Source: Escherichia phage UoN_LG358_1. Taken from it: 64,000 nucleotides of DNA. Positions within the stretch are counted from its first letter, which is position 1. Each line of letters opens with the position of its first letter. The position numbers and the translations under genes are program-made. Shown here in pieces: positions 1 to 52,655 of the stretch. The notes below the pieces were generated by a model. It ran no database searches. It was not told the DNA's origin and saw only the letters and a program-made list of their open reading frames with translations. The DNA is taken from sequence record OK570374, one strand, 5' to 3'.

Positions 1-1
1 T

Positions 2-11078: not shown

Positions 11079-11112
11079 ATACTCTCCTATACGGGCGGAA
11101 TGCCCGTATTAT

Positions 11113-15227: not shown

Positions 15228-15237
15228 TTATTTTGAT

Positions 15238-15274
15238 AGGGTTATAGTATCATAACCCTCAAGGAAAGTAAACG
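15238..15274 (-). promoter_or_regulatory. T4-type early promoter
   Basis: gtaaac at 15268-15273; -10 TGATACTAT. Confidence 0.5.
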
Positions 15275-15275
15275 G

Positions 15276-15713: not shown

Positions 15714-15779
15714 ATTATCACCTTTCAATTTTCAGTATCAGATTTGAGAAATTATTTTATATCAAAATATTTAAAGTTG

Positions 15780-31932: not shown

Positions 31933-34626
31933 TTAGAAGTCAAACATATCTTCTAACGATGCTTTCTCTTCGTAGTCCATACCAGCAGCCTCACACATGC
32001 CAGTCAAAGGTTTGACAAAAGACTTCTGAAAGAGTGTGGTGTAATCCATCCAAGCCAATACTTCTGAACGAATTTCCTGTGGCAACTCAGTACCGGATGG
32101 CCAAGCAATGCACTTATCACCAAACGGGTTTCCTTCGCGCAAAGGAACAATCATTACTTTGTTCCCCTCAAGAATTGGAGTAGCGCTGAACCCAGCAGTC
32201 GCTCGGTTGTAAGTCAAAGCACCTCGAATGTGGAACGGACACTTAAATCCAGGCCATCCGTTATCATCATACTTGGCGATGTCATTACATGTCTTAACTT
32301 CTGCAATGATTTTGTAATCAAGACCACGGTATTCTTTTTCAAACTGTTTGTAATATTCTTGTACTGATTTTTCACCTTCTTGAAGCATACGACGAATACT
32401 TTCTTCCAATGCTGCCTGCACCGCCTTTGGAGTAGAAGATTGCTGAGTTTCCATACCCATGATTTTTAGATGCGGCTCAGTGTAACGAGTATCTTCCATG
32501 TCATATACGTTCAATGCATAACGTTTCTTAGCTTTCCAGAAACCGCCAATACCCTTTGAACCAAGAGGAGGACAAGAAATAGCCTCACGGTCCATATGCA
32601 TTAGGTGTTCTTTATTATTCATGTACTCACAAAGCTCACGGTAAGCTTTGTCAATCATAGGTTCCATTTTTTTCTTACCAAATTGGTTCATGAATTCAAC
32701 CAAATCATTGGTATTTTTAAAACGCTCTAAACCTACTTTTTCAATTACTTTATCGACAGAAACGTAAACTGAGTCAGTGTCTCCTGCCGCTATAAAATCT
32801 TCATTGGTTGTACCGCATACTCGGTTCAGATACTCGTTAATCTTACGAGCAATCCACTGGATACCAACCTGACCGAACAGAGTGATAGCAGTCGCATTAC
32901 GGAGGTCAAAATATCGGAAATAAATGTTACCGAGAGCACCATAAAGACTGTTGATGAGAATTTTACGGTTCAACTGGTTTGTATTAGCCAAAATACTCGC
33001 AAGTTCACAATCATGTTTCATCGCTTTCAGAGCTGATACACTTAACCCGTAGAGTTCATTCTTCACTTCATCACTAAAATCTTTATAACGCTCAACCTGA
33101 ATTTTACCGCCAGTACCGCCGGACTTTGAAGCCATAACAGCATTAATAACTTCGATGTTACGTTTTTCGGCTTGCTGCTTTTTCTTCCAATCTTTACGTT
33201 GGAAAAATACCTTCGCAATCTCAACCGGGATAATACCCTCACGGTCTTTGTGATACATCCAACCATTTGGTGAACATGAATATGTATCACTAGGACGCGG
33301 TGCTGTTCCATTGATGTATTCATGAATTGGATGAAGCTTAAACTGACCAGCGATAGTTTCTGGACTGATATTCACTTGACGAATGATACTTGGATAAAGA
33401 GACGTCAAGTCAAAACTCATAATATAATTACGAGCACATGCTTTTGGTTCAAATACATAAGCACCTGGGAAGCTCTGCTTAACATGCGAACGTCCTTGCG
33501 GAACCACTCGCTTATCTTCTTTGAGACTATTGAAAATAATAGCATCCCAGGTTTTAATCGGACTCATTACACCGCCAAAAGGCATTTTAGCGTAATAAGA
33601 CATACTAATTGCTAGGTCGATGAACCCACGAACTTGGTCGATACCTTGCACCGATTCAACGTCCATGATGTTATAACTGATATAACGTTGGTGGTTCGTT
33701 TCACGCAATTTGTTAATCGGACCGTCATAAGGCAGTTTACCTTTTTTGGTCTCATATTTTGCAACATAATCCAAAGTATAAGACGGTTGGTTAGTGAAAC
33801 TGTACTTTTTGTACAAATCCATGTAATCAAGAATAGTTACGCCGTCAATGCTAAATACTTCTTTATCACCGTACATGTTAGTGATAATTTTAGATTTCAC
33901 GCGATTGATTGGTGAAAAACGCTTCATCGAACGTTCACCTAGAACTTGCTTAACGCGGTTCATGATATACGGAATATCAAAACCTTCAATGTTCCAACCG
34001 GTGAAAATTACTGGACGCTTTTGTTCCCAAAGACGAATATATTCCATCAACAGTTCGGCTTCAGTTTCAAACGGTAGATAAACAACCCGGTCAAGAATAT
34101 CTTGTGGAACTTCGTCGCCGCGCTCTGCTTCACACCGAGCTGCTAACTTTTTATCCCATTTGGATACTGACCCATACAACGAATGGAGTAAATCAAAGAC
34201 ATAAAATTTGTCATCAATGGAATCGTAATGAGTGATAGCATCAATTTCATATTCTGCTTTCATCGGGTCTGGGAATTTATCGCCAGTAACTTCGATGTCA
34301 CAGTTCGCTACACGAATGAATTTTCGGTCATAAACAATTTCGGAACCATATGTGTCACTGATATATGCGAGTTTAAAATCATCCATTCCCATTGCTTCAA
34401 GACCGACATCTTCCATGCGCTTGAACCAATCACGGGCATCCTTCATTGTAGGAAAATTAATTGGTTCGCAGTCCTTTCCATAGATGTCTTTGAATTTTGA
34501 TGGTTTATCAACATGACGGAACAGAGTCGGAGAATATTCGACGCGACGAGTTTTTTCTACGCCATCTTCAATATATCGTTCAACAATATCATTACCAACA
34601 GTTTCTACAGATACATAAAATTTCAT
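31933..34626 (-). CDS. 43: DNA polymerase gp43 (family B)
   Basis: 897 aa; near-colinear with recalled T4 gp43 (exo motif, YGDTDS-region equivalents, C-terminal KASLE.LF); no intein or intron interruption. Confidence 0.95.
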   Translation of the reverse strand: MKFYVSVETVGNDIVERYIEDGVEKTRRVEYSPTLFRHVDKPSKFKDIYGKDCEPINFPTMKDARDWFKRMEDVGLEAMGMDDFKLAYISDTYGSEIVYDRKFIRVANCDIEVTGDKFPDPMKAEYEIDAITHYDSIDDKFYVFDLLHSLYGSVSKWDKKLAARCEAERGDEVPQDILDRVVYLPFETEAELLMEYIRLWEQKRPVIFTGWNIEGFDIPYIMNRVKQVLGERSMKRFSPINRVKSKIITNMYGDKEVFSIDGVTILDYMDLYKKYSFTNQPSYTLDYVAKYETKKGKLPYDGPINKLRETNHQRYISYNIMDVESVQGIDQVRGFIDLAISMSYYAKMPFGGVMSPIKTWDAIIFNSLKEDKRVVPQGRSHVKQSFPGAYVFEPKACARNYIMSFDLTSLYPSIIRQVNISPETIAGQFKLHPIHEYINGTAPRPSDTYSCSPNGWMYHKDREGIIPVEIAKVFFQRKDWKKKQQAEKRNIEVINAVMASKSGGTGGKIQVERYKDFSDEVKNELYGLSVSALKAMKHDCELASILANTNQLNRKILINSLYGALGNIYFRYFDLRNATAITLFGQVGIQWIARKINEYLNRVCGTTNEDFIAAGDTDSVYVSVDKVIEKVGLERFKNTNDLVEFMNQFGKKKMEPMIDKAYRELCEYMNNKEHLMHMDREAISCPPLGSKGIGGFWKAKKRYALNVYDMEDTRYTEPHLKIMGMETQQSSTPKAVQAALEESIRRMLQEGEKSVQEYYKQFEKEYRGLDYKIIAEVKTCNDIAKYDDNGWPGFKCPFHIRGALTYNRATAGFSATPILEGNKVMIVPLREGNPFGDKCIAWPSGTELPQEIRSEVLAWMDYTTLFQKSFVKPLTGMCEAAGMDYEEKASLEDMFDF

Positions 34627-34696
34627 AAGGTTCCTTAGTTTTTCCAGTGGTCCGAGTGATTAGACCTTGGGTGTATTATATTCTATTCTTTGAATA

Positions 34697-34719
34697 GCAG
34701 AAAAGGCCCGGAGGCCTTT
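34697..34719 (-). terminator. Palindromic hairpin/terminator between regA and gene 43
   Basis: AAAAGGCC-CGGA-GGCCTTTT; T-runs on both strands. Confidence 0.45.
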
Positions 34720-34727
34720 TCATTGAG

Positions 34728-35090
34728 TTACGCGCCTATAGTATATTTCGCGATAAGTTTCCAATCGTCTTTTTGCTTAAATGTGATGACGCGGAAATTA
34801 TTTTGCATAGCTTGCAGAGAACCTCTGTCTACGAGTTCGATTAAACCCCAATCTTCCAGGAGTTGAGCAATTGAGTCGCGGCGGATAATATCTTCATCAT
34901 CAATAGTGACTGGCCGTCCGTCCAGTTTAAGCATCTCTTTAAAATGAACTACATAATAAAGACCCTGCTTCTGTAAGATATGACAACTTTGATATAATAC
35001 ACGGTCTCTGTTATTAGCAATACCCATACGAGTAAGAGTTTCTTTTACTTTCAGGAAGTCTTCAGGTTGTTTCAGTTTAATTTCGATCAT
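34728..35090 (-). CDS. regA: Translational repressor RegA
   Basis: 120 aa from MIEIKLKQPEDFLKVKETLTRMGIANN; near-identical to recalled T4 RegA. Confidence 0.9.
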   Translation of the reverse strand: MIEIKLKQPEDFLKVKETLTRMGIANNRDRVLYQSCHILQKQGLYYVVHFKEMLKLDGRPVTIDDEDIIRRDSIAQLLEDWGLIELVDRGSLQAMQNNFRVITFKQKDDWKLIAKYTIGA

Positions 35091-35092
35091 TT

Positions 35093-35665
35093 TTACCATT
35101 CCAATGCTTGTTTTTTAAATTGTTTTTGTTCTTTAACATTTTTGGTCACGTCTTTCAAAAATTCATCTGTGACCAACCCTTTGGCTTCTTTTAACACTAT
35201 GCCCAATTTACCTTTGCGTTCTAGAGTTTCTCTATAAACCTGAGCGTCATTTAAATTAATAGTATAATATTTCATTAATACCCTGAGAATAAGTATCTCC
35301 TGGGTATCCTCTATTAACTTAGCCCACTTACCAAAACGGCGGCCTTGAGGAACAGCAGCTACCATATAGTTGAAATGTGCTTCATCTGACAGTTCAGAAC
35401 CGATAAGATTCATTGTATAAACTGCTGTCATGCATTCCGGATGTTGCGATAACGCATTTTCAACCATGAATTTGTTATATTCTTTTTGAGCGATGGAACA
35501 TTGTTTCTTTTCGTTAATTGCGCCGATTATTTCAAAAAATTCATTTTCTGCTTTCTGTTTGAAAGTATCAGCCATTTCTTGAACTTTGTTCCAATCTTTA
35601 GAATACCAAGCTACCTGATGCTCATTAAATTGGACGTCATCATCAAATAAACTCATTATTTCCAC
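35093..35665 (-). CDS. 62: Clamp-loader small subunit gp62
   Basis: 190 aa; position between 44 and regA with coupled overlaps. Confidence 0.85.
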
Positions 35666-36621
35666 TCATTATTAAGTTCAGCTGTTAAACGCAAGAACAT
35701 ATACATCACATGAAGTTCAGTATTTGAGGCAACTCCTTTGTACTGGTTGTTTTCACCAATAATTTCGTACATTGCCATTATACCAGGTCCTTTAAGCATA
35801 GAGTATAATTCTTCGGCGAGTTTACCTACAAACCAAGAGTAATCAGTAGAATATTTTGGAGCCAAAGCCCTAAGCTGTTTAACATCTCGATTTTTTAGAG
35901 CATCAATCACATCTGAAATTGAACTAGAGTCTTTAGTTACAATACTCAGAATTCCAGCATCCAGAACGCCTTTGGACGAATACATATCAAGTTCGCCAAT
36001 AGTCTTACGAAAATCTGGAAAGTTCTTTTTAACTAAAGCAGCAACAACTTTTAAATCGGCGATTTCAATGTTTTCATTTTTACATATTTCAACCATACGA
36101 CGAATCATCTGTTTCATCATTGTTGTACGGTCTTCTTCTGTTGCTTGGCCAAATTTAATTACTCGGCAACGCGAACGAAGTGGTTCAATAATGCCGTCAA
36201 TATTGTTGGCAGTAATAATAACAGAACAGTTACTTGAATATGCTTCTAAAAATGAACGCAAATGACGCTGAGATTCAGCAAGTCCAGAACGGTCAAATTC
36301 GTCAATAACAATAACTTTTTGACGACCTTCAATAGAAGCAGAACTTGCAAAATTAGTTAATGGCCCACGGACAAAATCAATTTTACAATCTGAACCATTC
36401 ACAAACATCATATCAGCATTTGTGTCATTACACAAAGCTTTTGCTGTAGTTGTTTTACCTGTACCTGGTGAAGCAGATACCAGAATCATATGAGGGATTT
36501 TACCGCTTTTAACAATTTTATTCATTGTTTCGCGGTCGGCGGCGGGAAGGATACATTCTTCAATTGTAGAAGGACGATACCGTTGTTCAAGGATGTGTTC
36601 TTTTTCGTTAATTGTAATCAT
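35656..36621 (-). CDS. 44: Clamp-loader ATPase gp44 (RFC-like)
   Basis: 321 aa; Walker A SPGTGKTT, Walker [12 protein letters not shown] motif. Confidence 0.9.
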
Positions 36622-36689
36622 AATTTCCTCATATTAATATTCAAAGCAATGGGGCCGTAACCCCATTTTAAATCATTTTATTTACAGCA

Positions 36690-37376
36690 TTAAAAATCAT
36701 GAGTAGAATCAGCTTCCATAGCTACTACATAACTTGCATGTTCACCTTCAAACTTAGCTGCTGTTTTCTTACCATCAGCCCACAGCATCAGTTTGTATGA
36801 AGCGGGTTGCATTTTCATATTAGCCATGTTAATAACAAAGTTAAAGTTATTGGTGCCGTCATAATCGCCCAAAGTCAAAGAATATTTCACACGAACCAAA
36901 GCAGAATCTTCAACTTTATTATAACCGTTCAGAATAATTTTACCATCTTTATTGGTGAATGTGATGGTATCAATCTGCAAACCACGAGAAACTCGCATCA
37001 GCTGCTGAAGGTCTTCACCTTTAAAATCTACAATAACTGAAGCGACCGGGAACGGAATTGGCTTGCTTGGAAAAACAATGGTGCTTGGGTCAGCTGCTGG
37101 CCAGAAAATAGTTGAACGAGCATCTGCGATTTTCACATTACCATAATCTGCCATGGAAATCTCTGCGTCTTCATTAACCAAACCAAGAATACCCAGAAAA
37201 CCATTCAAATCATAAATTGCTACTTCAAAATCAATTGTGTCAGCGATAGTTGCTTCAGCATAAGTTGTGCCGTTTACAGCACGTGTCATGATAAAGTTAC
37301 CCTGCTTAAGCATGATACCAGAGTTAATAGTAGAGAAATTTTTCAGAATATTCAGAGTATCTTTAGACAGTTTCAT
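36690..37376 (-). CDS. 45: Sliding clamp gp45
   Basis: 228 aa from MKLSKDT; near-colinear with recalled T4 gp45. Confidence 0.9.
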   Translation of the reverse strand: MKLSKDTLNILKNFSTINSGIMLKQGNFIMTRAVNGTTYAEATIADTIDFEVAIYDLNGFLGILGLVNEDAEISMADYGNVKIADARSTIFWPAADPSTIVFPSKPIPFPVASVIVDFKGEDLQQLMRVSRGLQIDTITFTNKDGKIILNGYNKVEDSALVRVKYSLTLGDYDGTNNFNFVINMANMKMQPASYKLMLWADGKKTAAKFEGEHASYVVAMEADSTHDF

Positions 37377-37417
37377 TATTTTTCCTTTCAATTACACGTT
37401 TAATAAGATTTATTATA

Positions 37418-37810
37418 TTACTTAAAAGTTTTTGCAAGTTCTTCGATAACTTCTTCAGATACCAGCAAAGCAGCAGAAATCAATTGTTCATCAGCGTTAA
37501 CGCAGAAATCATCTTCAAGACGCTCGCCACCAATACGGTCCAGAACAAATTTAGCGCCGGCAGAAACAGACTCATTGTAATGTTTCCGCATCAGTTCAAT
37601 CCATTTATCATTTACGGCACGGTCAATTGACTGATAATATGCATGACGCGCTTCAGCAATAGGGATACGTTTGCGGATAAGTTCAGCACCTTGTTCACCC
37701 ATAGCAAGTACCCATGCTCGACGAATTTTGTTTTGGTTATTAGGGTTAGAGTCAGTACGTACATTTTTAGGCTGGATATCTTTAGTATCAATTGCAAAAT
37801 TCAAGTTCAT
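37418..37810 (-). CDS. Hypothetical protein in the rpbA position
   Basis: 130-aa ORF between 46-region genes and 45; T4 RpbA size and position. Confidence 0.55.
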
Positions 37811-37826
37811 AATATTTCCTATTCAA

Positions 37827-38018
37827 TTAATCAAAATATTCTATTACTGTCCAAGCGGTGTTGCGGTTAGACATTATTTTAACATATTCGTCTTTAAAAG
37901 CATCTCTGAGCTGTATTTCAGTAACTAAGTGGTCTTCACCTGAAAAATTATTAGTCAGAATATATCTTTTAATTTCCGGTACGGCCAACAGCTGTTGGCC
38001 ATTTTTAAAGTCTGTCAT
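37827..38018 (-). CDS. Hypothetical small protein
   Basis: 63-aa ORF overlapping the gene 46 end. Confidence 0.4.
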   Translation of the reverse strand: MTDFKNGQQLLAVPEIKRYILTNNFSGEDHLVTEIQLRDAFKDEYVKIMSNRNTAWTVIEYFD

Positions 38019-39700
38019 TTTTCCATTACCGTGAATCTGCCAACTTTCTTCATCTGAAGATGTTGCCCATAATCCTGCGGGTCATGGTCTTTATGGCTTA
38101 TGATAAAGATATTACTATCAGTCATTCCATTGAGAATTGTTCCTACTCGCTTAATACCTTCATTATCAAACGCGCCATCATAAACTTCATCAAGAAAGAG
38201 ACAGTTAATTTTAACATTAGAAACTTTTTCAGCAATGTCTCGCCACGTGAACAGCAACGCAATATCAATACGAGCTTTTTCGCCTTGGCTGAATGACGCA
38301 TAACTGAATTCTTCGCGCCCGCGAGATTTAATAGTTTCGGTGAATTCTTCGTTCAAAGTAAAGACATAATCAGCTTCCATAATTTTAAGATACTGATTAA
38401 TCTGTTTGTTGAACATCGGAATATATTTGCTAATAATAGCTCCCTTGATACCCGAATCTTTCAGCATTTCAGTTAAAATGCCTCGATGATATTTTTCCAT
38501 AACCATATTGGATTTGGTATCAACTATTTTATTCAATTCTTCGTTAAGCGTTTTAATCTCATCGGCATGATTGATGAATTCTTTTGATGCTTTTTCAATC
38601 GCCGCTTTTACTTTTTTAGCCTTTTCTACTGTTGAAATTAAAGTTTGCTTTTTAGATTTTATGTCTTGAGCAAGTTCACGTTGCGTTCTAACGTTGCTCT
38701 CATATTCATGCACTAGTGTCTCTAGATTGGCTCTATGACTTTCTAACGACTCTGATTTATGTTTACATTCATTAATCTTATCGTTAATCTGAGTGACTAG
38801 AGATGACCCAGAGTCTAATTGTTGCATGCATGTTGGGCATGAACCTCCAGAATGATACAAAGAAACAACCTTGTTATATGAGTCAATTTTAGACTTAATC
38901 AACAGAGTTTGATTACCAATTTCAGTAAACGCGGACCGAGGGTCTTCATCAAGCACGATAGATGTTAAACGCTCAGTTGCTTTTTCAATTTCGGATTTGA
39001 TAGAACGTGCTTCAGTCGCAAGTTCATCATACATGGTCTGAAAACGAGCTATATTTTCTCCTGATAGCTTTTTCTGGCGTTCAACGTTCTCTTCATAAAT
39101 TTTAATCTGTTGGATAATTCCGTCTTTCTTTGCGTCCAACACAGAGACTTGTGAATTAATTTCTCTTATATGAGATTTATTCAATTTATCCATTTCAGCT
39201 AATGTAGAAACTTCGAGCAAGTCTTCTACTAACTTCCGCCGAGCTGGAGTACTCAAACCCATGAACGGTGTATAACCAGCTGTACCAAGCACAACTACTT
39301 GCTTAAAGCTGGAATAAGACATTTTGATAAGTTCTTCAAAATAGCTTTGAAAATCTTTAACAGAAGCTGCCTCGTCCAGGCGAACTCCGTCTCGAGTTAT
39401 TTCAAAGATATTCGGCTTTTGACCGCGCTTTATATAAAAATGCTTACCGTCATACTCCATCCAAAGCTCTACTAACATATCTTTTTTATTAATAGAGTTT
39501 ACTAGTTGTCCTTTCTTAATATCACGGAACGGTTTGCCAAATAAAGCAAATGTAATAGCTTCCAGCATGGTACTCTTACCACCACCATTTTTGCCGGTGA
39601 TGAGAGTTTTTTGTACCTTATCAAGTTGAATATCAATTGGAACTTGTCCAACAGACATTATATTAGAATATTTTACTCTATTAAGTTTAAAGGTTTTCAT
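38015..39700 (-). CDS. 46: Recombination nuclease subunit gp46 (Rad50/SbcC-like ATPase)
   Basis: 561 aa; Walker A GKNGGGKST; near-colinear with recalled T4 gp46; C-terminus QHLQMKKVGRFTVM. Confidence 0.9.
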   Translation of the reverse strand: MKTFKLNRVKYSNIMSVGQVPIDIQLDKVQKTLITGKNGGGKSTMLEAITFALFGKPFRDIKKGQLVNSINKKDMLVELWMEYDGKHFYIKRGQKPNIFEITRDGVRLDEAASVKDFQSYFEELIKMSYSSFKQVVVLGTAGYTPFMGLSTPARRKLVEDLLEVSTLAEMDKLNKSHIREINSQVSVLDAKKDGIIQQIKIYEENVERQKKLSGENIARFQTMYDELATEARSIKSEIEKATERLTSIVLDEDPRSAFTEIGNQTLLIKSKIDSYNKVVSLYHSGGSCPTCMQQLDSGSSLVTQINDKINECKHKSESLESHRANLETLVHEYESNVRTQRELAQDIKSKKQTLISTVEKAKKVKAAIEKASKEFINHADEIKTLNEELNKIVDTKSNMVMEKYHRGILTEMLKDSGIKGAIISKYIPMFNKQINQYLKIMEADYVFTLNEEFTETIKSRGREEFSYASFSQGEKARIDIALLFTWRDIAEKVSNVKINCLFLDEVYDGAFDNEGIKRVGTILNGMTDSNIFIISHKDHDPQDYGQHLQMKKVGRFTVMEK

Positions 39701-40529
39701 TTAATATCCGTCTGTCAAATTCGGCTACTATAGCTTGTAAAGAACTTGTTATGGGATGCCCGAGTTTAATAAGTTCTTTTGAAAATGTAGAATATCTAGG
39801 TTTATTCATTTTAATCCACTCTGTATAAAGCAAATCAAAATTTTGCCATTGATACGATTTTCTTCTGGATTTTAAATGAGCCTCTCTAATTTCGTCATTC
39901 TTCCAACTTTGAGAAACTCCCAATGATAAAGATTTACGATAATCTAAATTTTTAGATGAGAGTCTAGTTGCATTTAAATGCTTAATTTTATTTTCTGGAT
40001 TTTCAAACCACTCTTTAGTTTTCTTAGATACTAAAGACTTAAATTCATTTGAATTTACTCGTTCCAGGTGAATTTTTAAATTATCGGAATTTTCAAACCA
40101 TCGTTTGACTGCTTGGCTAATTTTTATTCTGTTTTCTGCTATTGAATAATAACTGGACATTTTGATTGAAATAGCCTTTGAAATTTCAGTAGAAACTTTT
40201 GAATATATTTTAGCCATTTCTTCAAATTCTTCAAAACTACATTTATAAGCAGTTTTGCTATTATTCATTCTATTAATAGCTTGCAACATTCTATAATCTT
40301 TAGTTTCAGACAATATAGCATGTGCAATAAAATGGTTATAATGTGTTAAATGCACAATATTTGACGGGTCTTTAGCATATTCTGGAAAAATGGACTTTGG
40401 TAAAATATGATGAGCTTGAGTATGTCCTTTGTTTAACTTGGTTGAATTAGTTTTAATAAATTCTACATACTTATTAACGCCTTCCCATTGAGGGAAGGCT
40501 GCTTTTAATATAGTCTCAGCGTCAATCAT
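39687..40529 (-). CDS. Free-standing HNH homing endonuclease between genes 47 and 46
   Basis: 280 aa; HHILPKSIFPEYAKDPSNIVHLTHYNHFIAH HNH motif; basic repeat-rich C-terminal half; overlaps both neighbours. Confidence 0.8.
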   Translation of the reverse strand: MIDAETILKAAFPQWEGVNKYVEFIKTNSTKLNKGHTQAHHILPKSIFPEYAKDPSNIVHLTHYNHFIAHAILSETKDYRMLQAINRMNNSKTAYKCSFEEFEEMAKIYSKVSTEISKAISIKMSSYYSIAENRIKISQAVKRWFENSDNLKIHLERVNSNEFKSLVSKKTKEWFENPENKIKHLNATRLSSKNLDYRKSLSLGVSQSWKNDEIREAHLKSRRKSYQWQNFDLLYTEWIKMNKPRYSTFSKELIKLGHPITSSLQAIVAEFDRRILNENL

Positions 40530-41548
40530 TGATTTTGGACCTCGATATAAAGTTGATTAGCATATTTTATAACTGCTTTCCTGTCATCGTTGGATAAATC
40601 AGGTAAAGAGTTAATATATTCTTCCATAAGTTCAAGTAAGCTTTTAACTTCTACTTCAGCTTCTTCATCAACTTCAAGAGAATTATCAATCTTTGAAACG
40701 GTACGAAGCTCATGAACAACTTTTTCGAGTTCGCTTTCAAATTTTGGAAGGTCTTTATCAACTTCTGTAATAATGACACGAACTGAAATATTTTTGTAAC
40801 GATTAATATCAAATTTACCCTTAAATGGATAAATTATTTTTTGATGCCAACATGTTTCGTTTTCGATAAAATCAAAACTGTCATCTTGAGTGTCCTGTAT
40901 CCAAAAACCTCGCGGGTCATTTTCGTCTCCCGCAGTAAGTGTCCATGGTGTGCCAATATATTTGACATTAGCGGCACTAGAGATAGTATGGAAGTGTCCA
41001 GAACGAACATGTTTATATTTTTTAAGGAAATCAGGTTCCAACCCGTGGGATTTTAATCCTTTGTAGTAATAAAAACCACTTAATTCCCAATGACCAATGC
41101 AAATATCAGCATCAGATGTTTTGATGTGATTCATTATATCGGACGCGTTCTCTTCGCACATCCACGGAATCATATCAATCAAACAACCATCAAAATCTAC
41201 AGTTTCAGGAATATCATGAATTATGATATGGTCATATTTACCGAGAATCTCAGTAATCGCGTTAGGGCGAAGTGTGTTCTTATAATGCATGTCATGATTA
41301 CCAATTATGGTATGCATCGTAATACCAGCTTCATCCAATAGCGTTGCTATCTCACGGGCAAATTCCATAGTCTTATGAGTGATAGCTTTACGAACGTCAA
41401 AGATGTCGCCGTACTGAACCCATGTAGTTATGCCATGCTTTTTAGAATATTCAATCTTTTGACGTATTCCATCTCGCTGGATATTCTGAAGCCAAGGGTC
41501 ATCGCCCTTAACTCCTAAATGCCAATCACCTGTGTGAAGAATTTTCAT
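40526..41548 (-). CDS. 47: Recombination nuclease subunit gp47 (Mre11/SbcD-like)
   Basis: 340 aa; phosphoesterase motifs GDWHLG, GDIFD, GNHD, GHWE, GHFH; near-colinear with recalled T4 gp47. Confidence 0.9.
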   Translation of the reverse strand: MKILHTGDWHLGVKGDDPWLQNIQRDGIRQKIEYSKKHGITTWVQYGDIFDVRKAITHKTMEFAREIATLLDEAGITMHTIIGNHDMHYKNTLRPNAITEILGKYDHIIIHDIPETVDFDGCLIDMIPWMCEENASDIMNHIKTSDADICIGHWELSGFYYYKGLKSHGLEPDFLKKYKHVRSGHFHTISSAANVKYIGTPWTLTAGDENDPRGFWIQDTQDDSFDFIENETCWHQKIIYPFKGKFDINRYKNISVRVIITEVDKDLPKFESELEKVVHELRTVSKIDNSLEVDEEAEVEVKSLLELMEEYINSLPDLSNDDRKAVIKYANQLYIEVQNQ

Positions 41549-41688
41549 ATATCAAGCGCCGTCATAGCTGAGAGAATTAATATCATAGAAATGAACCCAT
41601 CTGGTGTAGAAAAGAATCCAACCCAACAAGCTCGGCCAAATAAGTATAATCCTGCCAATAGGCTAAGTATGCCTAAGTAAGTAATCAT
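41545..41688 (-). CDS. Putative 47-aa membrane peptide (not in ORF track)
   Basis: MITYLGILSLLAGLYLFGRACWVGFFSTPDGFISMILILSAMTALDI; stop overlaps the gene 47 ATG. Confidence 0.3.
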   Translation of the reverse strand: MITYLGILSLLAGLYLFGRACWVGFFSTPDGFISMILILSAMTALDI

Positions 41689-41760
41689 CTTTTCACCCCA
41701 AATATATTTTTAACATGTACAAAAATGATAATTAATTATATCAAATGTATAAAAAGCAAA

Positions 41761-42090
41761 TTAATACGCGCACAATATTTTTGAAACGTTTGACTGGTTA
41801 ATTTTGTGAATAAACTCACATTTTTCTTCTGGCGATAATTCGTGATTTCTGATGAGTGTCGCACAAGGATATTTTGGTGGATAATCTTTCTTTAAAACTA
41901 AAAGCAACTCATCCAAATATCCGCAACTATCATAAGCATGCCGAAGTTTAACAATATCAACATGCTTAATGCGTTCAAAATCTTTAGAGCTTTGTACTGT
42001 ACTTCGCCAATGCACTTCATTATCTTTAGTCGTTGGAGAAATATAAACTGCAACTCTTAGTTCAGTGTCATTTAATTTAATTTTTTCCAT
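41761..42090 (-). CDS. Hypothetical protein
   Basis: 109 aa from ATG at 42090 (GAGGT SD); track start is TTG. Confidence 0.45.
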   Translation of the reverse strand: MEKIKLNDTELRVAVYISPTTKDNEVHWRSTVQSSKDFERIKHVDIVKLRHAYDSCGYLDELLLVLKKDYPPKYPCATLIRNHELSPEEKCEFIHKINQSNVSKILCAY

Positions 42091-42103
42091 TATTACCTCA
42101 AAG

Positions 42104-42128
42104 AACAAAGGGAGCCTCGGCTCCCTTA
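42104..42128 (-). terminator. Possible terminator hairpin
   Basis: GGGAGCC..GGCTCCC stem with T-rich tail on the minus strand. Confidence 0.35.
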
Positions 42129-42262
42129 AATTTTACGATATGTTATAGTATTTTCGGCTTTTGCTTTATCGTGTAATAGTTTGAATTGTGACATCATTTC
42201 AGACATGCTGTTATGTATTTTTGTATAATCAACAGTCTTCTTTGGAGTTTCTGCCACGATTT

Positions 42263-42475
42263 TTACCATTTCCACCACCGTTTAACTTGAAAAGTATCAG
42301 CCCAAACTAATGTTTTTTCATCTATAGCAATCTCTGAACTTTTAGTTACACCATACGGACCAAGAATTTTGTATGTGTTTTTAGAAGTTTTTAGAGCCAT
42401 TGTTCCATTAACCATAGATAGAGTGAAACAGGCATTAACTTTAAGACGTTTGAATTTAACCTTTACTATTGCCAT
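42263..42475 (-). CDS. Hypothetical small protein
   Basis: 70-aa ORF. Confidence 0.4.
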   Translation of the reverse strand: MAIVKVKFKRLKVNACFTLSMVNGTMALKTSKNTYKILGPYGVTKSSEIAIDEKTLVWADTFQVKRWWKW

Positions 42476-42788
42476 TTACAATTTCCCAAATCTGTCGACG
42501 AGTGGTTTCCCACTGTACTTTGACAAGTTCATCTGTATAAGGTTGGCGTAAAATGTCCCGAGATTTCTCGATAGCATATTTGTACGCCGCGAAGTTATTT
42601 TCTACTACTACTGCTCTTTGTGCATGCTCATTTAAACGTTTAAGTTCTTTTGCATGCTTTTTATAAATTTTCGCTGCTTTAGCGTTAGCTTCTTGACGTG
42701 TTGCTTCTTCCATTCGAGCGATAATTTGTTCTACTTCTTCTGGGTTTTCATCAATTTTATTGATATTATCAATAATCTCTGGAGACAT
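42456..42788 (-). CDS. Hypothetical protein
   Basis: 110-aa ORF, coiled-coil-like. Confidence 0.45.
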   Translation of the reverse strand: MSPEIIDNINKIDENPEEVEQIIARMEEATRQEANAKAAKIYKKHAKELKRLNEHAQRAVVVENNFAAYKYAIEKSRDILRQPYTDELVKVQWETTRRQIWEIVNGNSKG

Positions 42789-42797
42789 TTAATTACC

Positions 42798-43052
42798 TTA
42801 TTTTGGAAAATAATCCAATGAAAAATAAAATCCGTCAGGAGATACAACATACTGATGAGGAACTTCTTTTCCATCAACAATAAATGTAATATCATGCGGA
42901 TTAGTTGGGTCAATATGAATATCCATTTCGAGAACTTCCCTTAAATACATTTTTAGTATATAAGGAATAGCTTCTAATTCTGGAATATCTTCAAGCATTC
43001 CTGCGAGGTCAATCTTCAGCCTCATATAAAAAATCCAAATTCGGAGAATCAT
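42798..43052 (-). CDS. Hypothetical protein
   Basis: 84-aa ORF overlapping the gene 55 end. Confidence 0.4.
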
Positions 43053-43548
43053 CTATTTCAACACTCTTTTTGTCAGACCCTGGTGCTTTGTAGGTAGATT
43101 CTTCATAATGCGTCATTTTATCGTAGATGTCCTGAATGAACGTTTCATCTGCTAACGCGACCATATCATCGTCACGACTGTCATAGACATTGTGAACAAA
43201 ATAGCTATATTTCTTTGCCATCTCTTTGCGTTCTTTTTTGATACGCTGAACGAAAGCATTAAAACAAGCCTGAGTTATGTATGCATGTGGGTTTTTGTAT
43301 TTCTCTTCGTCAAAGTTTTTGAGACCTTTAATAGCAGCCTCAACTCCATCAGAAATCATTTCATCTTTCCATGATTGGGTGTATCCTGAAAAGTTAAAAC
43401 GCTTTGACAATCCCTCGGAAATAAGCATAATAGCTTTTCCAATAGTGTCATTCTGACGAACAAGCGTTCCTTCTGGCGCTTCTCTACATTTTTGTTTCCA
43501 TTCACATATTGCGTTGTAAAGCTCTTTGTTGTTTACATAGTCAGCCAT
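43009..43548 (-). CDS. 55: Late-transcription sigma factor gp55
   Basis: 179 aa; matches recalled T4 gp55 ([70 protein letters not shown]). Confidence 0.9.
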
Positions 43549-43617
43549 TAATACCTCATCGCCTCAAGTTTATATATACTTTTATTATATCATATTTGTG
43601 GGACAAGAGGTTATTTG

Positions 43618-43905
43618 CTAATTAGAAGAACGAAGAATGCAATACATCTGAAAAAGTTGTTCACCAATTTCTTTAAATTGGTCAAATAAAAGAAAATAAG
43701 CTGTGTATGAATACAAGTCATTATCTTCCCAAAAATCGTTGAAACTATTAAACATTTCGGTGTAATCTTTTTGGTTGAGCTTTGAAGCATGAGAATGCCA
43801 ATATACTCCAGGCATCGCATCGGTTTCAAATTTAATTCCCATCATATAATCAACACTAAAAATACCAAAATTCTCAATAATTAATTTAAGTTCTGTTCTT
43901 TTCAT
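43618..43905 (-). CDS. Hypothetical protein
   Basis: 95-aa ORF; preferred over the overlapping 43611-43829 frame. Confidence 0.4.
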   Translation of the reverse strand: MKRTELKLIIENFGIFSVDYMMGIKFETDAMPGVYWHSHASKLNQKDYTEMFNSFNDFWEDNDLYSYTAYFLLFDQFKEIGEQLFQMYCILRSSN

Positions 43906-43943
43906 TGCTCCTCACATGTTTCGGCAAGTTTGTTCACAATTAA

Positions 43944-44195
43944 TCATAATTCAAACGCAGTAAAACTATCAGCAACTAAACTGGCAAATAGATGAAACGG
44001 AATAATGTTTTCCTCGTCTTCAACTTCTTCAATGAATTGCTCATATAAAATCTCGTTGGTATAATCACGGAAAATAGCTATATCGCTTTCCCAACATGCT
44101 CCAGTTAATTCGTTTAAAAAATAAACTGAGCCATCATTATGGATTATCCATTCTCTATAATTTTCTAAAACAATAGAAATTTGTTTATATTTCAT
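43944..44195 (-). CDS. Hypothetical acidic protein
   Basis: 83-aa ORF. Confidence 0.4.
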   Translation of the reverse strand: MKYKQISIVLENYREWIIHNDGSVYFLNELTGACWESDIAIFRDYTNEILYEQFIEEVEDEENIIPFHLFASLVADSFTAFEL

Positions 44196-44422
44196 AGAAC
44201 AAGTTCCTTAGCAGCTTCTAAAGCTTTATCCATTGAACTGAATGCATCTACTGAGTGATAATCTTTACCTGTGTATTCATATAACCACCAGGCGTCAAAG
44301 TCTTCTTCAATAACGTAACCAACACCGTTCTTCGAAGTACCTTCAATCATCAGTCTCCCATCTTCAACAGAAGCATCAAATCCTGCGAGTTCTAAATCTG
44401 CGACAATTTGTTCTTTATTCAT
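44192..44422 (-). CDS. Hypothetical acidic protein
   Basis: 76-aa ORF, coupled overlap with its neighbour. Confidence 0.4.
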   Translation of the reverse strand: MNKEQIVADLELAGFDASVEDGRLMIEGTSKNGVGYVIEEDFDAWWLYEYTGKDYHSVDAFSSMDKALEAAKELVL

Positions 44423-44678
44423 TCAGATATTCCTCAAGCTCTTTTCTTGTTAATCCTTCATTCCACATAGTAGCAGGATTAGGACAATCAGTGTTGCTAG
44501 TACTAATAGGATAATATCTCATTTCTTTACCAAGAGCATACAGACATCCAAATGCTTCGTAATAATTGACAGCTTGGTAAGTTTCAATCTGTTCTGGCAA
44601 TGAAATAGCCTTTGCGCCTGTAATAGTGGGTTTCAAGTAAACTACAATAAGTGCTATGCCTTCGCCGAATTCGCTCAT
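44415..44678 (-). CDS. Hypothetical protein
   Basis: 87-aa ORF. Confidence 0.4.
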   Translation of the reverse strand: MSEFGEGIALIVVYLKPTITGAKAISLPEQIETYQAVNYYEAFGCLYALGKEMRYYPISTSNTDCPNPATMWNEGLTRKELEEYLNE

Positions 44679-45013
44679 TTTGCCGCCTTAACAATTTTGA
44701 GGTCAACAAATCCTTTCTTGCGCTGATTTTTCATTTTACGAATAGTGCGTTCGGAAATTTCAGGTTTTTTATTTGTTGGAATACCAAAAGCATCTAGATT
44801 AAATTCATCAATAATATAACAAACAATCAATTCACGAATTCGAGCTTTTCCGATCTTCTGGTCGTTCTCTTTCATAGTTCCATGAAGAGCAGTTTCCCAT
44901 TCATCTAAAATTTCAGGCGTGACAATAACAGATTTGAATTCACCATCAACTTTCATTTCTTCAACTTTAGGGAAAACAAAAGAGTTCAGAACGTTTTTGA
45001 TAGCTTGTGACAT
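44675..45013 (-). CDS. Hypothetical protein
   Basis: 112-aa ORF. Confidence 0.45.
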   Translation of the reverse strand: MSQAIKNVLNSFVFPKVEEMKVDGEFKSVIVTPEILDEWETALHGTMKENDQKIGKARIRELIVCYIIDEFNLDAFGIPTNKKPEISERTIRKMKNQRKKGFVDLKIVKAAK

Positions 45014-45123
45014 GTTATTTTCCTCATTGGTCGTTAGATGTTTGACATAGAGATTTTAATTTAAAATCCCTATAGCAAACTCAACTCATCTGTATGTTTT
45101 TAGCATTATGAACAATTTTGAAA

Positions 45124-45309
45124 TTATCCTTCGACATACCAACCTTTATCTTGCCACGCTTCGCCTTTATACCAACGAGTCATATCATAACCGCCATTGT
45201 CGCGAACCGTTCCATTATCATAAATGAAATACTCATCTGATGTGAAATATTCATGACGAATACACTTGCCGGTAATTTTTGAAGTCATCACAGCTTCTTG
45301 GTAAGTCAT
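45124..45309 (-). CDS. Hypothetical small protein
   Basis: 61-aa ORF. Confidence 0.35.
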   Translation of the reverse strand: MTYQEAVMTSKITGKCIRHEYFTSDEYFIYDNGTVRDNGGYDMTRWYKGEAWQDKGWYVEG

Positions 45310-45575
45310 TATGCACCTCTTACAGCATCAATCAATTCTCGTACCACAGTATCCAATTCACTTGTGTATACATCCGGAACCAGAGCTTTAATACAATTAC
45401 TCATTCGTCCCGGGTAGTGTTGAGCATGATTGAGCGAAACATCTGTCCGACAACCCTTCGCCCGGAAAACAACTTCTTCGTCAGAGATTTCAACTGTGAG
45501 TGGCACTTTATCGGTGGATGAAGTACGAATAATCATTTCATACTTAATCATACTCGTTTTAGATACGATAATCAT
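45309..45575 (-). CDS. Hypothetical protein
   Basis: 88 aa from ATG at 45575 (GGAG SD); track extension is promoter read-through. Confidence 0.45.
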   Translation of the reverse strand: MIIVSKTSMIKYEMIIRTSSTDKVPLTVEISDEEVVFRAKGCRTDVSLNHAQHYPGRMSNCIKALVPDVYTSELDTVVRELIDAVRGA

Positions 45576-45594
45576 CTTTAACTCCATTTGTGTG

Positions 45595-45635
45595 GTATGA
45601 GGTAATAGTAACACAGTTTTTGGAGGATGTAAACG
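45595..45635 (-). promoter_or_regulatory. T4-type early promoter (cassette family B)
   Basis: gtaaac at 45629-45634; about 45-bp block identical to 62383-62427. Confidence 0.55.
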
Positions 45636-45644
45636 GTTGATATG

Positions 45645-45673
45645 AAAGAAAAGAGGGACCGCTAGGGTCCCTC
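45645..45673 (-). terminator. Rho-independent terminator after nrdH
   Basis: GAGGGACC-GCTA-GGGTCCCTC hairpin plus T-run (minus strand). Confidence 0.6.
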
Positions 45674-45725
45674 GGATTTAAAGTCAATATATTATATTAG
45701 AATGATGCAAGAATGGGATAGAGTA

Positions 45726-46037
45726 TCACTCTTCGTCCAGGTTATAACCTAAGACGCTAAGTTGTTCTAATAGGTGGGATTTGTTGCGTATTCTTTGGTT
45801 GTTCAAAAAGACGATAGGATATCGTAGAGCTAAACTCGGATAACTACCTACACGTTTAGCCGCTTCAGTAATTCGGTCTCTGTCGTAGACAAATCCAACT
45901 TCGTTTTCGTTTGGAATTATTACATCGTAAAAAGCATAAGGGATATTTTCATCATCCAAAGTTTTACGAATTGAATAGCAGGCCGGACACCGGCCTACTG
46001 TCTCAGGAATTCCGTATATTTCTATTTTTGCAGACAT
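45726..46037 (-). CDS. nrdH: Glutaredoxin-like protein (NrdH-type)
   Basis: 103 aa with CPAC redox motif; adjacent to the anaerobic RNR genes. Confidence 0.65.
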   Translation of the reverse strand: MSAKIEIYGIPETVGRCPACYSIRKTLDDENIPYAFYDVIIPNENEVGFVYDRDRITEAAKRVGSYPSLALRYPIVFLNNQRIRNKSHLLEQLSVLGYNLDEE

Positions 46038-49932: not shown

Positions 49933-50097
49933 TCAATTATATAGCCAATATGTCCTTGCCCATTTCTTACGGTTTCGGATTTGAGTTTTAGTCGGCTTAG
50001 TAGAGAACCACCAGGAAATTTTATATCCATCGTCAAAATCAAAAATTAGATGCCATTTAGACATCTGATTTGATACATACTTTAATTCAGTTTTCAT
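49933..50097 (-). CDS. Possible 54-aa protein (weak)
   Basis: Short ORF with Trp-rich C-terminus; no clear SD. Confidence 0.25.
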   Translation of the reverse strand: MKTELKYVSNQMSKWHLIFDFDDGYKISWWFSTKPTKTQIRNRKKWARTYWLYN

Positions 50098-50104
50098 TTA
50101 AATA

Positions 50105-50524
50105 CTAGCTGGAAAAAGATAGCTGTTTTTCTAGAGCTCGAATATAATCCGCTGCTGCTTGCATTATATTAGCTTCATACCCATTAACACGGATTTTCGC
50201 GGCTTCAAGATGGTCTGTTATTGGTTGTCCGTCGTCAAAAAATCCTAAAGTAACCGCTGGAAATAAATCAGAATCATATTCTTCGATTTCTTTAAGTTGA
50301 TACATACCGTCTTCACAGTAAAAACACCAGAACCAACTATCGCGAGCGTTAATATGAAGATAAGGGCCGTTTTTAATTTTGACAGAAGTGATACCGTCTT
50401 CATGGCCGTTTTCTTTGTCAACAGTAATAACTTTAAAAACAGTTCCGACTTTCATTTCAGGAAATTGTTCCAGAAGTTCTTCATCGTCTTCAATAATTTC
50501 AAAAACTTTATTCACTAAACTCAT
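50105..50524 (-). CDS. Hypothetical acidic protein
   Basis: 139 aa from ATG at 50524 (1 nt after the upstream stop); track start is TTG. Confidence 0.45.
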   Translation of the reverse strand: MSLVNKVFEIIEDDEELLEQFPEMKVGTVFKVITVDKENGHEDGITSVKIKNGPYLHINARDSWFWCFYCEDGMYQLKEIEEYDSDLFPAVTLGFFDDGQPITDHLEAAKIRVNGYEANIMQAAADYIRALEKQLSFSS

Positions 50525-50525
50525 A

Positions 50526-50885
50526 TTAAATTCCATCACTTTTAGTATTAGGAGTATCAAATAATGATATTACACAATCCGGATTTCCAGTTATATGACA
50601 GCTTGTAAACAGTGCCCAACGGCTTAAAGCCCATTTACCTAAAATAATTTTAGACCTTTTGTTGGATTCTTCAACGCTGAGAGTCATATTAAGTCTTGGA
50701 AAATAAACAGAAGTGATACCAGTGATTTCTCCAGTGTCAGTAAAACTTGTGTAGCATTTGGAAATAACAAGTTCATCACCAGGGATAACACCCATATCTC
50801 TGAAATAGTCTATCACATCTCCAAGCTCATGCTTGACTTTAAAAACTTCCGGTTTTACTGTAAGTTTAAGTCCAGTTAAATTCAT
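50526..50885 (-). CDS. Hypothetical protein
   Basis: 119-aa ORF; GAGGG SD. Confidence 0.45.
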   Translation of the reverse strand: MNLTGLKLTVKPEVFKVKHELGDVIDYFRDMGVIPGDELVISKCYTSFTDTGEITGITSVYFPRLNMTLSVEESNKRSKIILGKWALSRWALFTSCHITGNPDCVISLFDTPNTKSDGI

Positions 50886-51008: not shown

Positions 51009-51317
51009 TTATAGTTCCACCCATTCTGTAATTGTCCTCGTTACAACACGTTCGTGTTTCTCAACAAGCGAAACATTTGGAGTAATATAGTACCAGTCAG
51101 AATGGTACGAGCCTGAACGAGTTTCATTTACGGCGATATAAACGTCATGTTTTGTAGAATAATAAACTGATTGACGATATTGATATTTGTGCTCTTGAAC
51201 CCAGTCTTTGGTTTCCACTTCTTCAAGATATTCAGAATCGTCAAAATCATAATGCTCGTAATAACCATCATGGTCTTTCATGATTTCTTTAAGAATAGCA
51301 GTTTGTTCAGGAGTCAT
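51009..51317 (-). CDS. Hypothetical protein
   Basis: 102-aa ORF; GAGGT SD. Confidence 0.45.
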   Translation of the reverse strand: MTPEQTAILKEIMKDHDGYYEHYDFDDSEYLEEVETKDWVQEHKYQYRQSVYYSTKHDVYIAVNETRSGSYHSDWYYITPNVSLVEKHERVVTRTITEWVEL

Positions 51318-51477
51318 TATTTACCTCGTAGACGGTTAAGCTGTTCGTCATCAGCCCAGCTCTCAAGTCCAGATGGCAAATCGCATTCAATTTGCCAAAG
51401 TAACTCTTCAACTTCATAAAGTCTAAATAGTTCTTCTTGTTTAATAACTGCTTCGTCATCGTTCAATTCGATTGTTT

Positions 51478-51669
51478 TCATTGCAATGTCCACATAAATT
51501 TGAAAAGATTTTCTTGGACTACAGCATCATCCCAGCCCCAAACATTAATGTCTTCTGCTAATTTGCTTGGAAGTACATCAAGAACTTGCTGAATACTAGG
51601 AGCTGATATACCAATTCTTTTAGCACATCGACTATAAGCAACTAAAAATTCGTCATAGTTATTAATCAT
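51478..51669 (-). CDS. Hypothetical small protein
   Basis: 63-aa ORF. Confidence 0.4.
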   Translation of the reverse strand: MINNYDEFLVAYSRCAKRIGISAPSIQQVLDVLPSKLAEDINVWGWDDAVVQENLFKFMWTLQ

Positions 51670-51889
51670 AAAGTTTCACCATACAATCACCGTATTTCCA
51701 CTTTGACATAACCTTTTCGCCGGTAGAGTAAGTTACTTCAACCTTAGCTCGGTGATTTTTTATTTGAACAATTCGGCCAGTTTCAAGACTGCCGTAGCCG
51801 TAATAAAGCGCAATTATATCATTAACGAAAAGCTCCTTTCCGCGATAATCACGCATATAATCTTGACCTTCAACCATGCATTCTATCAC
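51662..51889 (-). CDS. Hypothetical small protein
   Basis: 75-aa ORF overlapping its neighbours. Confidence 0.4.
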   Translation of the reverse strand: MIECMVEGQDYMRDYRGKELFVNDIIALYYGYGSLETGRIVQIKNHRAKVEVTYSTGEKVMSKWKYGDCMVKLYD

Positions 51890-52149
51890 CGAAAATACTC
51901 GCGCAATTTATCAAAACCACCAATATAACTTCCATCTGGAGCAAATATTTGCGGTACGGTAAGACCGATTTGTGTATCTCTTCCAAGACGAGTCAAAAGT
52001 TCAGCAATAATTTCATCGTCAAATACACCTTTTTCTGGCATGATATTGATGAATTCATATGGTTGTTTTTTAACATCCAGAAGACGTTTAGCGTTATCAC
52101 AGAATACGCATTTATGAATGTTGCTGTCGTAACCGAATACTTTGAACAT
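51886..52149 (-). CDS. nrdC: Thioredoxin/glutaredoxin NrdC
   Basis: 87 aa; near-identical to recalled T4 NrdC (MFKV.GYDSNIHKCV.CDNAKRLL.VKKQP.EFINIMPEKGVFDDE.IAELLT.LGRDTQIGLT.PQ.FAPDGS.IGGFD.LREYF). Confidence 0.88.
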   Translation of the reverse strand: MFKVFGYDSNIHKCVFCDNAKRLLDVKKQPYEFINIMPEKGVFDDEIIAELLTRLGRDTQIGLTVPQIFAPDGSYIGGFDKLREYFR

Positions 52150-52655
52150 TATTTTACCTCTACGGGGAATACTTGGGCCAATTTTGCAGCAATAGCTTTA
52201 TCAATAATTTCGCTAAAACTTTCGTTCAATCGAGAAACAATCATTTCTTCATATTGTCGTTCATTAATCTTGATTGCATCAGCGATATAATTTTCCATTC
52301 GTTTAGCTGCTGCGTCTACCGAGCTCACAAGTGAGTCCAAAAGTTGTTCATGCGCTATACGTTCAGCTTCTTCTTTCATCACTCGTTTGAGTTCAACTGT
52401 ACCCTTAACATTCCAGCCATTACGCTCAAAAAACTTCTCGAGCTCTTTGCGAACCGCATCTTCTACGTTAGGAATGTTAGAACCTTGAAAAGCAATTTCA
52501 GATTTAACTGCTTCCGTAATTTTATTTTTGGAGTCTTTAACAACAAGTTCTTTAACAATATTGTTAATCACAGATTGTTGTAAAGCAACTCGCATTGCAG
52601 AGCCTTCAGGGAACAACTGACGAACTGCGTGAGTATCTAATTTTAAATCAATCAT
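52149..52655 (-). CDS. Hypothetical protein
   Basis: 168-aa ORF, coiled-coil-like. Confidence 0.45.
   Translation of the reverse strand: MIDLKLDTHAVRQLFPEGSAMRVALQQSVINNIVKELVVKDSKNKITEAVKSEIAFQGSNIPNVEDAVRKELEKFFERNGWNVKGTVELKRVMKEEAERIAHEQLLDSLVSSVDAAAKRMENYIADAIKINERQYEEMIVSRLNESFSEIIDKAIAAKLAQVFPVEVK

Follow-up and report, generated by a model that had tools for sequence, protein, structure and literature searches.

A probable Mob-type HNH homing endonuclease gene at the gene 47/46 junction of Escherichia phage UoN_LG358_1

The stretch of DNA analysed here (the window) comprises 64,000 nucleotides (nt) of Escherichia phage UoN_LG358_1 (sequence record OK570374), whose sequence groups with the T4-like Salmonella phages of the genus Gelderlandvirus (S16 group). 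An open reading frame (ORF) of 280 amino acids with an ATG start is located on the minus strand at 39687-40529, between genes 47 and 46. On the basis of sequence comparisons we consider it probable that this ORF encodes a free-standing homing endonuclease of the Mob type known from T4, and that its homing site comprises the start of gene 46 and the junction of that gene with gene 47. A homing endonuclease insertion at this place, already proposed in a first-pass annotation of the same DNA, is supported by the polymorphism of the slot among related phages, by the footprint of a natural transfer, by the HNH residues and predicted fold of the protein, and by its homology to T4 MobD.

Transfer footprint and polymorphism of the 47/46 slot

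As shown by alignment with the Gelderlandvirus STP4-a, the differences between the two phages over 34000-46000 were concentrated in 39638-40865. No difference was found over 34000-39637 (5,638 nt) or over 40871-41548 (0.68 kilobases, kb), and 11 differences were found in 41549-46000. Positions at which STP4-a and CF-SP2 differ were used as informative sites, with CF-SP2 as a proxy for the donor. The window carried the STP4-a base at 47/47 informative sites in 38816-39584, the CF-SP2 base at all 36 sites in 39638-40865 and the STP4-a base again at 23/23 sites in 40904-41525. The crossovers were located within 39585-39638 and 40865-40904. The whole gene-conversion patch relative to STP4-a (39638-40865, 1.23 kb) contains the endonuclease gene, flanked on one side by the 5'-terminal 63 nt of gene 46 and on the other by roughly 340-378 nt from the 3'-terminal part of gene 47. 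It takes the place of the gp46.1-like ORF STP4a_048 (DUF5487) of STP4-a. On the gene 46 side, the crossover lies somewhere in nt 63-116 of that gene. On the other side, the co-converted 3' end of gene 47 (40526-40865, minus strand, about 340 nt) has the CF-SP2 base at every site where CF-SP2 and STP4-a differ. At position 40579 the window differs from STP4-a and matches neither donor-like phage. Co-conversion of markers in genes 46 and 47 flanking the endonuclease gene had been anticipated in the first-pass annotation. The natural patch, with donor-type bases at every informative site, is in agreement with it, and the pattern is repeated in a second genus, as described below.

Identity between the window and CF-SP2 was about 99.9% in the patch and 94-97% in the flanks. 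Identity between STP4-a and S16 was 96.8-98.6% inside the patch and 99.3% in the body of gene 46. Because the patch is near-identical to CF-SP2 and the flanks are not, and because STP4-a is not closer to S16 inside the patch, the window lineage is the recombinant one and gained the endonuclease gene. The opposite event, loss of the gene by STP4-a, was rejected on the same two observations. The window thus appears to be essentially a phage of the STP4-a type with a recent acquisition from a donor resembling Melville or CF-SP2.

The first 63 nt (21 codons) of gene 46 (39638-39700, minus strand) accompany the endonuclease gene in a recoded form, which we predict to be a cleavage-resistant version of the homing site. 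The window and STP4-a differ at 24/63 nt in this block; 13 codons are changed synonymously and 3 non-synonymously (Q12S, G19Q and S20V). Given a background divergence of 5.6% (CF-SP2 versus STP4-a in gene 46), the binomial probability of at least 24 differences is 1.7e-14. The GC content of the block is 25% in the carrier allele versus 43% in the endonuclease-free allele of STP4-a. The carrier allele is identical in SEA1 and CF-SP2, differs at 1 position in Melville, and is about 92% identical to that of L009, an endonuclease-carrying contig of the genus Moonvirus. Over the same 63 nt, carriers from the two genera (window and L009) differ from each other at 5 positions and non-carriers from the two genera (STP4-a and CF1) at 10, whereas carriers and non-carriers differ at 22-24 positions in the three pairs compared. 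As judged from these counts, the allele of the block tracks the presence of the endonuclease gene rather than the genus, in both genera.

The slot between genes 47 and 46 varies among relatives of the same genus. The ORF is not conserved in all of them, and presence or absence of a gene between two conserved genes among close relatives is in accordance with the free-standing insertion that had been proposed. Among Gelderlandviruses, the endonuclease gene is present in Melville, SEA1, CF-SP2 and the window; STP4-a and S16 have in its place a 68-amino-acid ORF of the T4 gp46.1 family (DUF5487); and in STML-198 the slot is empty, the GTG start of gene 46 overlapping the stop of gene 47 (GTGA). 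As judged from the megablast pattern, UTK0003, AKM_NP4 and CGG4-1 give an S16-like two-piece match, with the slot annotated 'hypothetical protein', and ABTNLPp2 gives a match like that of STP4-a. The SEA1 copy differs from that of the window at 1/825 nt. In the CF-SP2 copy (L013, 10529-11378), an insertion of 7 nt divides the gene into two ORFs; it represents either early decay or a sequencing error. In Moonvirus the slot is occupied in L009, and the gene is absent from Citrobacter phage CF1. In Tequatrovirus an intact gene is found in F2 and PhiZZ23, a frameshifted one in T2 and none in T4. Since homing endonuclease genes are expected to cycle through gain, decay and loss, the decayed copies in CF-SP2 and T2 fit this picture.

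The second natural transfer is seen in Moonvirus. L009 is an 11-kb assembly contig that is 98.2% identical to CF1 and has the gene order 47-endonuclease-46, its endonuclease being 74% identical to that of the window. CF1 has no endonuclease gene, and its genes 47 and 46 abut with a GTGA overlap. The GTG start of the L009 endonuclease gene is located exactly at the position of the gene 46 GTG of CF1. The first approximately 86 nt of gene 46 are recoded between the two (29/87 nt): 16 codons are changed synonymously and 5 non-synonymously.

More distant genes of the family occupy the slot in Tequatrovirus. The F2 gene (QIG57388; 55% identity) overlaps gene 46 by 14 nt as in the window; it follows 46.2, and the overlap into gene 46 is the only feature of the arrangement in common. 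The PhiZZ23 gene (YP_010065699) is 44% identical, or 42% when aligned with MAFFT; in T2 a copy of this PhiZZ23-type gene is frameshifted and lies in two ORFs (T2_55/T2_56). Comparison of PhiZZ23 (L007, 2926-3813) and T2 (L006, 2956-3841) with T4 (L008, 3925-4045) placed the insertion exactly after nt 18 of the T4-type gene 46. The former gene 46 start (GTGAAGAATTTTAAACTT) now opens the inserted ORF, a duplicated 9-nt sequence, TTTAAACTT, marks the two ends of the insertion, and a new gene 46 start (ATGAAATCATTTAAACTT) is supplied at the 3' end. The T2-type gene resembles that of the window in family (44-55% identity), in its slot immediately upstream of gene 46 and in providing a new gene 46 start. 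It differs in that 46.1 and 46.2 persist upstream of an insertion located behind nt 18 of gene 46, whereas in the window type the endonuclease gene takes the place of 46.1 and directly adjoins gene 47; furthermore, nt 19-66 of gene 46 contain no recoded block in Tequatrovirus. In STML-198, as in CF1, gene 46 begins with a GTG (GTGA) that coincides exactly with the endonuclease start position. Because the endonuclease starts sit at the gene 46 start sites of phages lacking the gene, the PhiZZ23/T2, window and L009 types all take over the translation start of gene 46 and bring a replacement.

The gene, its product and its expression signals

The upstream neighbour of the endonuclease gene is gene 47 (40526-41548, minus strand; 340 amino acids, Mre11/SbcD-like, with a Pfam Metallophos match). 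Its downstream neighbour and presumed target is gene 46 (38015-39700, minus strand; 561 amino acids, Rad50/SbcC-like, with Pfam AAA_23 and SMC_N matches and a weak match to the Rad50 zinc hook). The two products are annotated as the nuclease subunits gp47 and gp46 in related genomes. Both overlaps described in the first-pass annotation were found at the positions given: the TGA stop of gene 47 overlaps the endonuclease ATG by 4 nt (ATGA, 40526-40529), and the first 14 nt of gene 46 overlap the 3' end of the endonuclease ORF. Its statement that only small ORFs separate the two genes in T4 was also accurate, 46.1 and 46.2 alone being located between genes 47 and 46 in that phage. The GC content of the endonuclease gene is 29.5% versus 36% in genes 46 and 47. 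The ratio of non-synonymous to synonymous substitution rates (dN/dS) was 0.17, 0.27 and 0.39 against orthologs at 74%, 55% and 42% identity, respectively. A profile search found 375 homologs of the protein, and the protein itself matched PHROG 655 'homing endonuclease' (E=2.9e-36). With these matches and the low dN/dS, the ORF is a real gene under purifying selection.

The protein contains AHHILPKSIFPEYAKDPSNIVHLTHYNHFIAHAIL, the HNH motif as originally quoted, and the invariant residues, the predicted fold and the homology to T4 MobD agree with that designation. Residue invariance and Pfam content were determined on 109 aligned homologs out of the 375. Residues H40, H41, P44, N57, H66 and H70 were invariant. 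HNH (PF01844) was found in 23/109 homologs, HNH_5 in 16/109 and NUMOD3 in 42/109. A Pfam scan of the endonuclease ORF itself gave no HNH or NUMOD match at E<=0.1, the C-terminal fragment scanned on its own gave no match, and a PDB sequence search with the protein returned only a spurious coiled-coil match. T4 MobD is homologous over 91% of the query (30% identity, E=6e-14, tblastn). The protein is already public, a 100% identical sequence from Melville (ATN93021.1) being annotated 'MobD-like homing endonuclease', and it is an ordinary member of the well-known Mob class.

The AlphaFold2 model of the complete protein had a predicted local distance difference test score (pLDDT) of 87, and that of residues 1-98 a score of 92. 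Foldseek comparison of the full model with the PDB gave no match at E<=0.001; the small nuclease core is apparently outweighed by the long helical array, and the N-terminal domain (residues 1-98) was therefore modelled separately. The putative catalytic core (40302-40421, minus strand; residues ~37-76) consists in the model of a strand at 37-41 ending in H40 and H41, followed by N57, a strand at 58-62 and a helix at 63-76 bearing H66 and H70. This is the beta-beta-alpha-metal (HNH/His-Me finger) arrangement as modelled, and catalysis is predicted from it.

The core is followed by three tandem two-helix repeats of about 33 residues each (39852-40142, minus strand; residues ~130-226) with the motif ..R.K.S....K.WFEN.EN..KHL. 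Their helices were modelled at 131-146, 148-158, 161-176, 178-193, 195-210 and 212-225, with pLDDT mostly above 85. The array is presumed to bind DNA, and it is possibly NUMOD3-like. NUMOD3 of distant homologs aligns to residues ~129-142 of the endonuclease; the hhalign probability for the repeats against NUMOD3 segments was only 20%, and the assignment to NUMOD3 (PF07460) was not adopted for this reason. A C-terminal helical module (39717-39848, minus strand; residues ~228-271), possibly helix-turn-helix-like, completes the protein.

In the translation start region (40526-40543, minus strand), a GAGG at 40540-40543 is located 10 nt upstream of the ATG, and Melville has a ribosome-binding site annotated at this position. 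No T4 late promoter (TATAAATA) was found within 9 kb of the endonuclease gene. A scan for sigma-70-type promoters found 18 versus 17.2 expected, i.e. chance level, and the best match (39684-39657, inside gene 46) was dismissed as chance in AT-rich DNA. Promoter-less, translationally coupled cassettes have been described for T4 mobD and mobE (PMC2988022). With no promoter match above chance and a start that overlaps the gene 47 stop, the endonuclease gene fits this pattern by analogy.

A GC-rich hairpin of 8 base pairs (bp) is located at 40479-40499 (minus strand), 30 nt after the beginning of the endonuclease coding sequence. L009 and F2 have it too, with covariation of the closing pair (G-C/A-T/T-A). 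Terminator hairpins occur early in mobE and segF (PMC2988022). The hairpin of the window scores as a terminator on the antisense strand only, and it was not called a terminator because no U-run follows it on the sense strand.

The gene 47-46 operon attracts further endonuclease genes in SEA1, PhiZZ23 and F2. In SEA1 (L012, 11682-12302), a 206-amino-acid ORF overlapping the 5' end of gene 47 gave a borderline GIY-YIG match (E=2.6e-4, 21.7 bits versus a cut-off of 22.6). In PhiZZ23 (L007, 862-1485), an annotated HNH gene is located upstream of gene 47. In F2 (L005, 5497-6213), a putative homing endonuclease gene lies on the opposite strand just after gene 46. Melville (L011, 4657-5361) and CF-SP2 have another 'MobD-like homing endonuclease' ORF between the DNA polymerase gene and regA, which is absent from the window and STP4-a. 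The region upstream of gene 47 (41549-41760 in the window) varies in length and content among Gelderlandviruses: the gap from gene 47 to the next annotated ORF measures 213 nt in STP4-a but 55 nt in both STML-198 and Melville. Elsewhere in the window, about 450 bp at 50032-50481 have no counterpart in STP4-a; an ORF at 50105-50560 (minus strand, 151 amino acids) encodes a homolog of the peptidase inhibitor PinA (Pfam Inhibitor_I24, E=6e-48).

Proposed homing and alternative explanations

We propose that the endonuclease is read from the gene 47-46 transcript, without a recognisable promoter of its own, and would be translated from the position at which gene 46 starts in phages lacking the element. 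The 3' end of its gene carries a replacement start and the first ~21 codons for gene 46. When a carrier and a non-carrier phage infect the same cell, the enzyme would make a nick or cut in the non-carrier DNA, either at the 47/46 junction or in the beginning of gene 46, and the break would be resected and repaired from the carrier genome. Along with the endonuclease gene, repair would introduce the recoded beginning of gene 46 and a few hundred bases from gene 47, and it would delete gene 46.1 where present. The recoded gene 46 start would make the site uncuttable. The conversion patch must contain the cut site, because the product would otherwise be cut again; the site would therefore lie within 39638-39700 or, less probably, within 40526-40865. 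The predicted cut region begins at the 47/46 junction and reaches about nt 90 of gene 46. Breaks made during intron homing in T4 are resected by the gp46/gp47 nuclease. If it resects here too, the element would target machinery on which it depends, and the donor would supply that machinery in trans.

Some observations weigh against this proposal. The activity of T4 MobD was recorded as 'not determined' and its target as 'unknown' (PMC2988022), and the name MobD for that reason implies no known mechanism. Patches of single-nucleotide polymorphisms without an endonuclease gene also separate the window from STP4-a, at 14692-16310 (78 differences) and at 51278-52272 (21 differences). Ordinary recombination makes patches of similar size, so the patch alone is no proof that an enzyme started the exchange. 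In addition, T4, which has no endonuclease gene, and T2/PhiZZ23, with the T2-type gene, are nearly the same over nt 19-66 of gene 46. Heavy recoding is thus a trait of the window-type lineage and not universal to the slot.

The patches lacking an endonuclease gene are what would be expected if the HNH gene were an inactive or non-site-specific passenger moved by ordinary homologous recombination, with the recoded gene 46 start as linked donor sequence. The decayed copies in CF-SP2 and T2 are consistent with such a passenger, as is the listing of T4 MobD activity as 'not determined' (PMC2988022). However, a passenger would hardly be expected to keep its catalytic residues intact and invariant and to be under purifying selection. 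The patch is also tightly centred on the gene, with no differences for kilobases around. Furthermore, a second genus shows the same gene with the same recoded block in the same slot, where the non-carrier background is 98% identical, and related genes fill the slot in three genera. We consider passive transfer unlikely and favour active mobility, because spread across three genera is hard to explain otherwise.

It is also conceivable, though in our view improbable, that the nuclease is domesticated or beneficial to its carrier, either as a weapon against gene 46 of competitors (interference competition or marker exclusion) or as an accessory of gp46/gp47, its spread being a by-product. Purifying selection, co-transcription and translational linkage with genes 47 and 46 would accord with such a role, and the presumed target is an essential recombination gene, so that cutting would handicap a competitor. 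Yet the gene is absent from most close relatives, all of them viable isolates, and is frameshifted in CF-SP2 and T2. A role of this kind would moreover be compatible with homing, as one cut gives both effects. That the ORF is a chance reading frame and not a gene, for which only the AT-richness of the region speaks, is refuted by the 375 homologs, dN/dS of 0.17-0.27, the model at pLDDT 87 and the strong family profile matches.

Under active homing, a further possibility is that these genes form a Mob lineage specialised on the start of the Rad50-like gene 46 in at least three T4-like genera, which would move as a unit combining takeover of the start with pre-recoded, cut-resistant first ~21-29 codons. 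We regard the case for and against this specialised lineage as evenly balanced.

Relation to known systems and significance

T4 MobD is homologous to the protein of the window over 91% of the latter and shares its HH...N...H...H core; mobD, too, is a free-standing cassette that lacks a promoter of its own (PMC2988022). MobD differs in its slot (nrdC.11/mobD.1 versus 47/46) and in its C-terminal repeat array, and identity is only 30%. T4 MobE is likewise encoded by a free-standing Mob-type HNH gene between two subunit genes of one enzyme (nrdA/nrdB); the mobE start codon overlaps the upstream stop codon, which suggests coupled translation (PMC2988022), and the window has an overlap of this kind. 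MobE nicks nrdB, the downstream subunit gene (PMC2988022), whereas gene 46 is only the presumed target here. A structured RNA element is located early in the mobE coding region (PMC2988022); the window has a conserved hairpin without a U-run. Similarity between MobE and the window protein is confined to the N-terminal ~120 residues.

A parallel to the proposed mode of transfer is provided by T4 SegF and SegG, free-standing GIY-YIG enzymes whose cuts in T2 genes 56 and 32 lead to localised marker exclusion (PMC2988022). There, too, the neighbouring conserved gene of a non-carrier is cut, repair proceeds from the carrier, flanking sequence is co-converted, and the target in the carrier differs in sequence (PMC2988022). 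The window differs in having an HNH enzyme, and its evidence is a natural footprint rather than a cross. Nuclease genes at the boundaries of phage genetic exchange are the subject of a general survey, as outlined in Barth et al. 2023 (bioRxiv 10.1101/2023.03.23.533998). The pattern outlined there, a recombination patch between otherwise near-identical phages with an endonuclease gene in its middle or at its border, is similar to that in the window.

The window contains a second Mob-type HNH ORF (HHILPRS...N..L..REHFIAHW; ~11627-12420, minus strand), in a ~1.1-kb segment (11458-12551) absent from STP4-a. On either side of it is a piece of the topoisomerase II large-subunit gene (12422-13975 and 11113-11487), a placement resembling that of mobA in T4 gene 39/60. 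No ATG, GTG or TTG is present between the upstream stop and the HH motif, and the ORF has no Pfam match. To its left, over 1-11457, identity to STP4-a drops to 91-96%, which places this ORF at an exchange boundary.

The general phenomenon is already well described (PMC2988022 and, in outline, Barth et al. 2023). The literature searched contained nothing specific on an endonuclease at the 46/47 junction or in Gelderlandvirus. What the present comparison adds is the base-level boundaries of two natural transfers (window versus STP4-a and L009 versus CF1) and a concrete target-site prediction for a MobD-like enzyme, a group in which no enzyme had a known target as of the 2010 review (PMC2988022). 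If the reading of a lineage specialised on the gene 46 start is true, the pairs window/STP4-a and L009/CF1 would be donor/recipient systems for defining the first MobD-like target site. Relatives of S16 are used in biocontrol and detection. In the comparison and engineering of such Salmonella phages, the element would explain a local burst of divergence at the start of gene 46, which is not to be taken for ordinary mutation.

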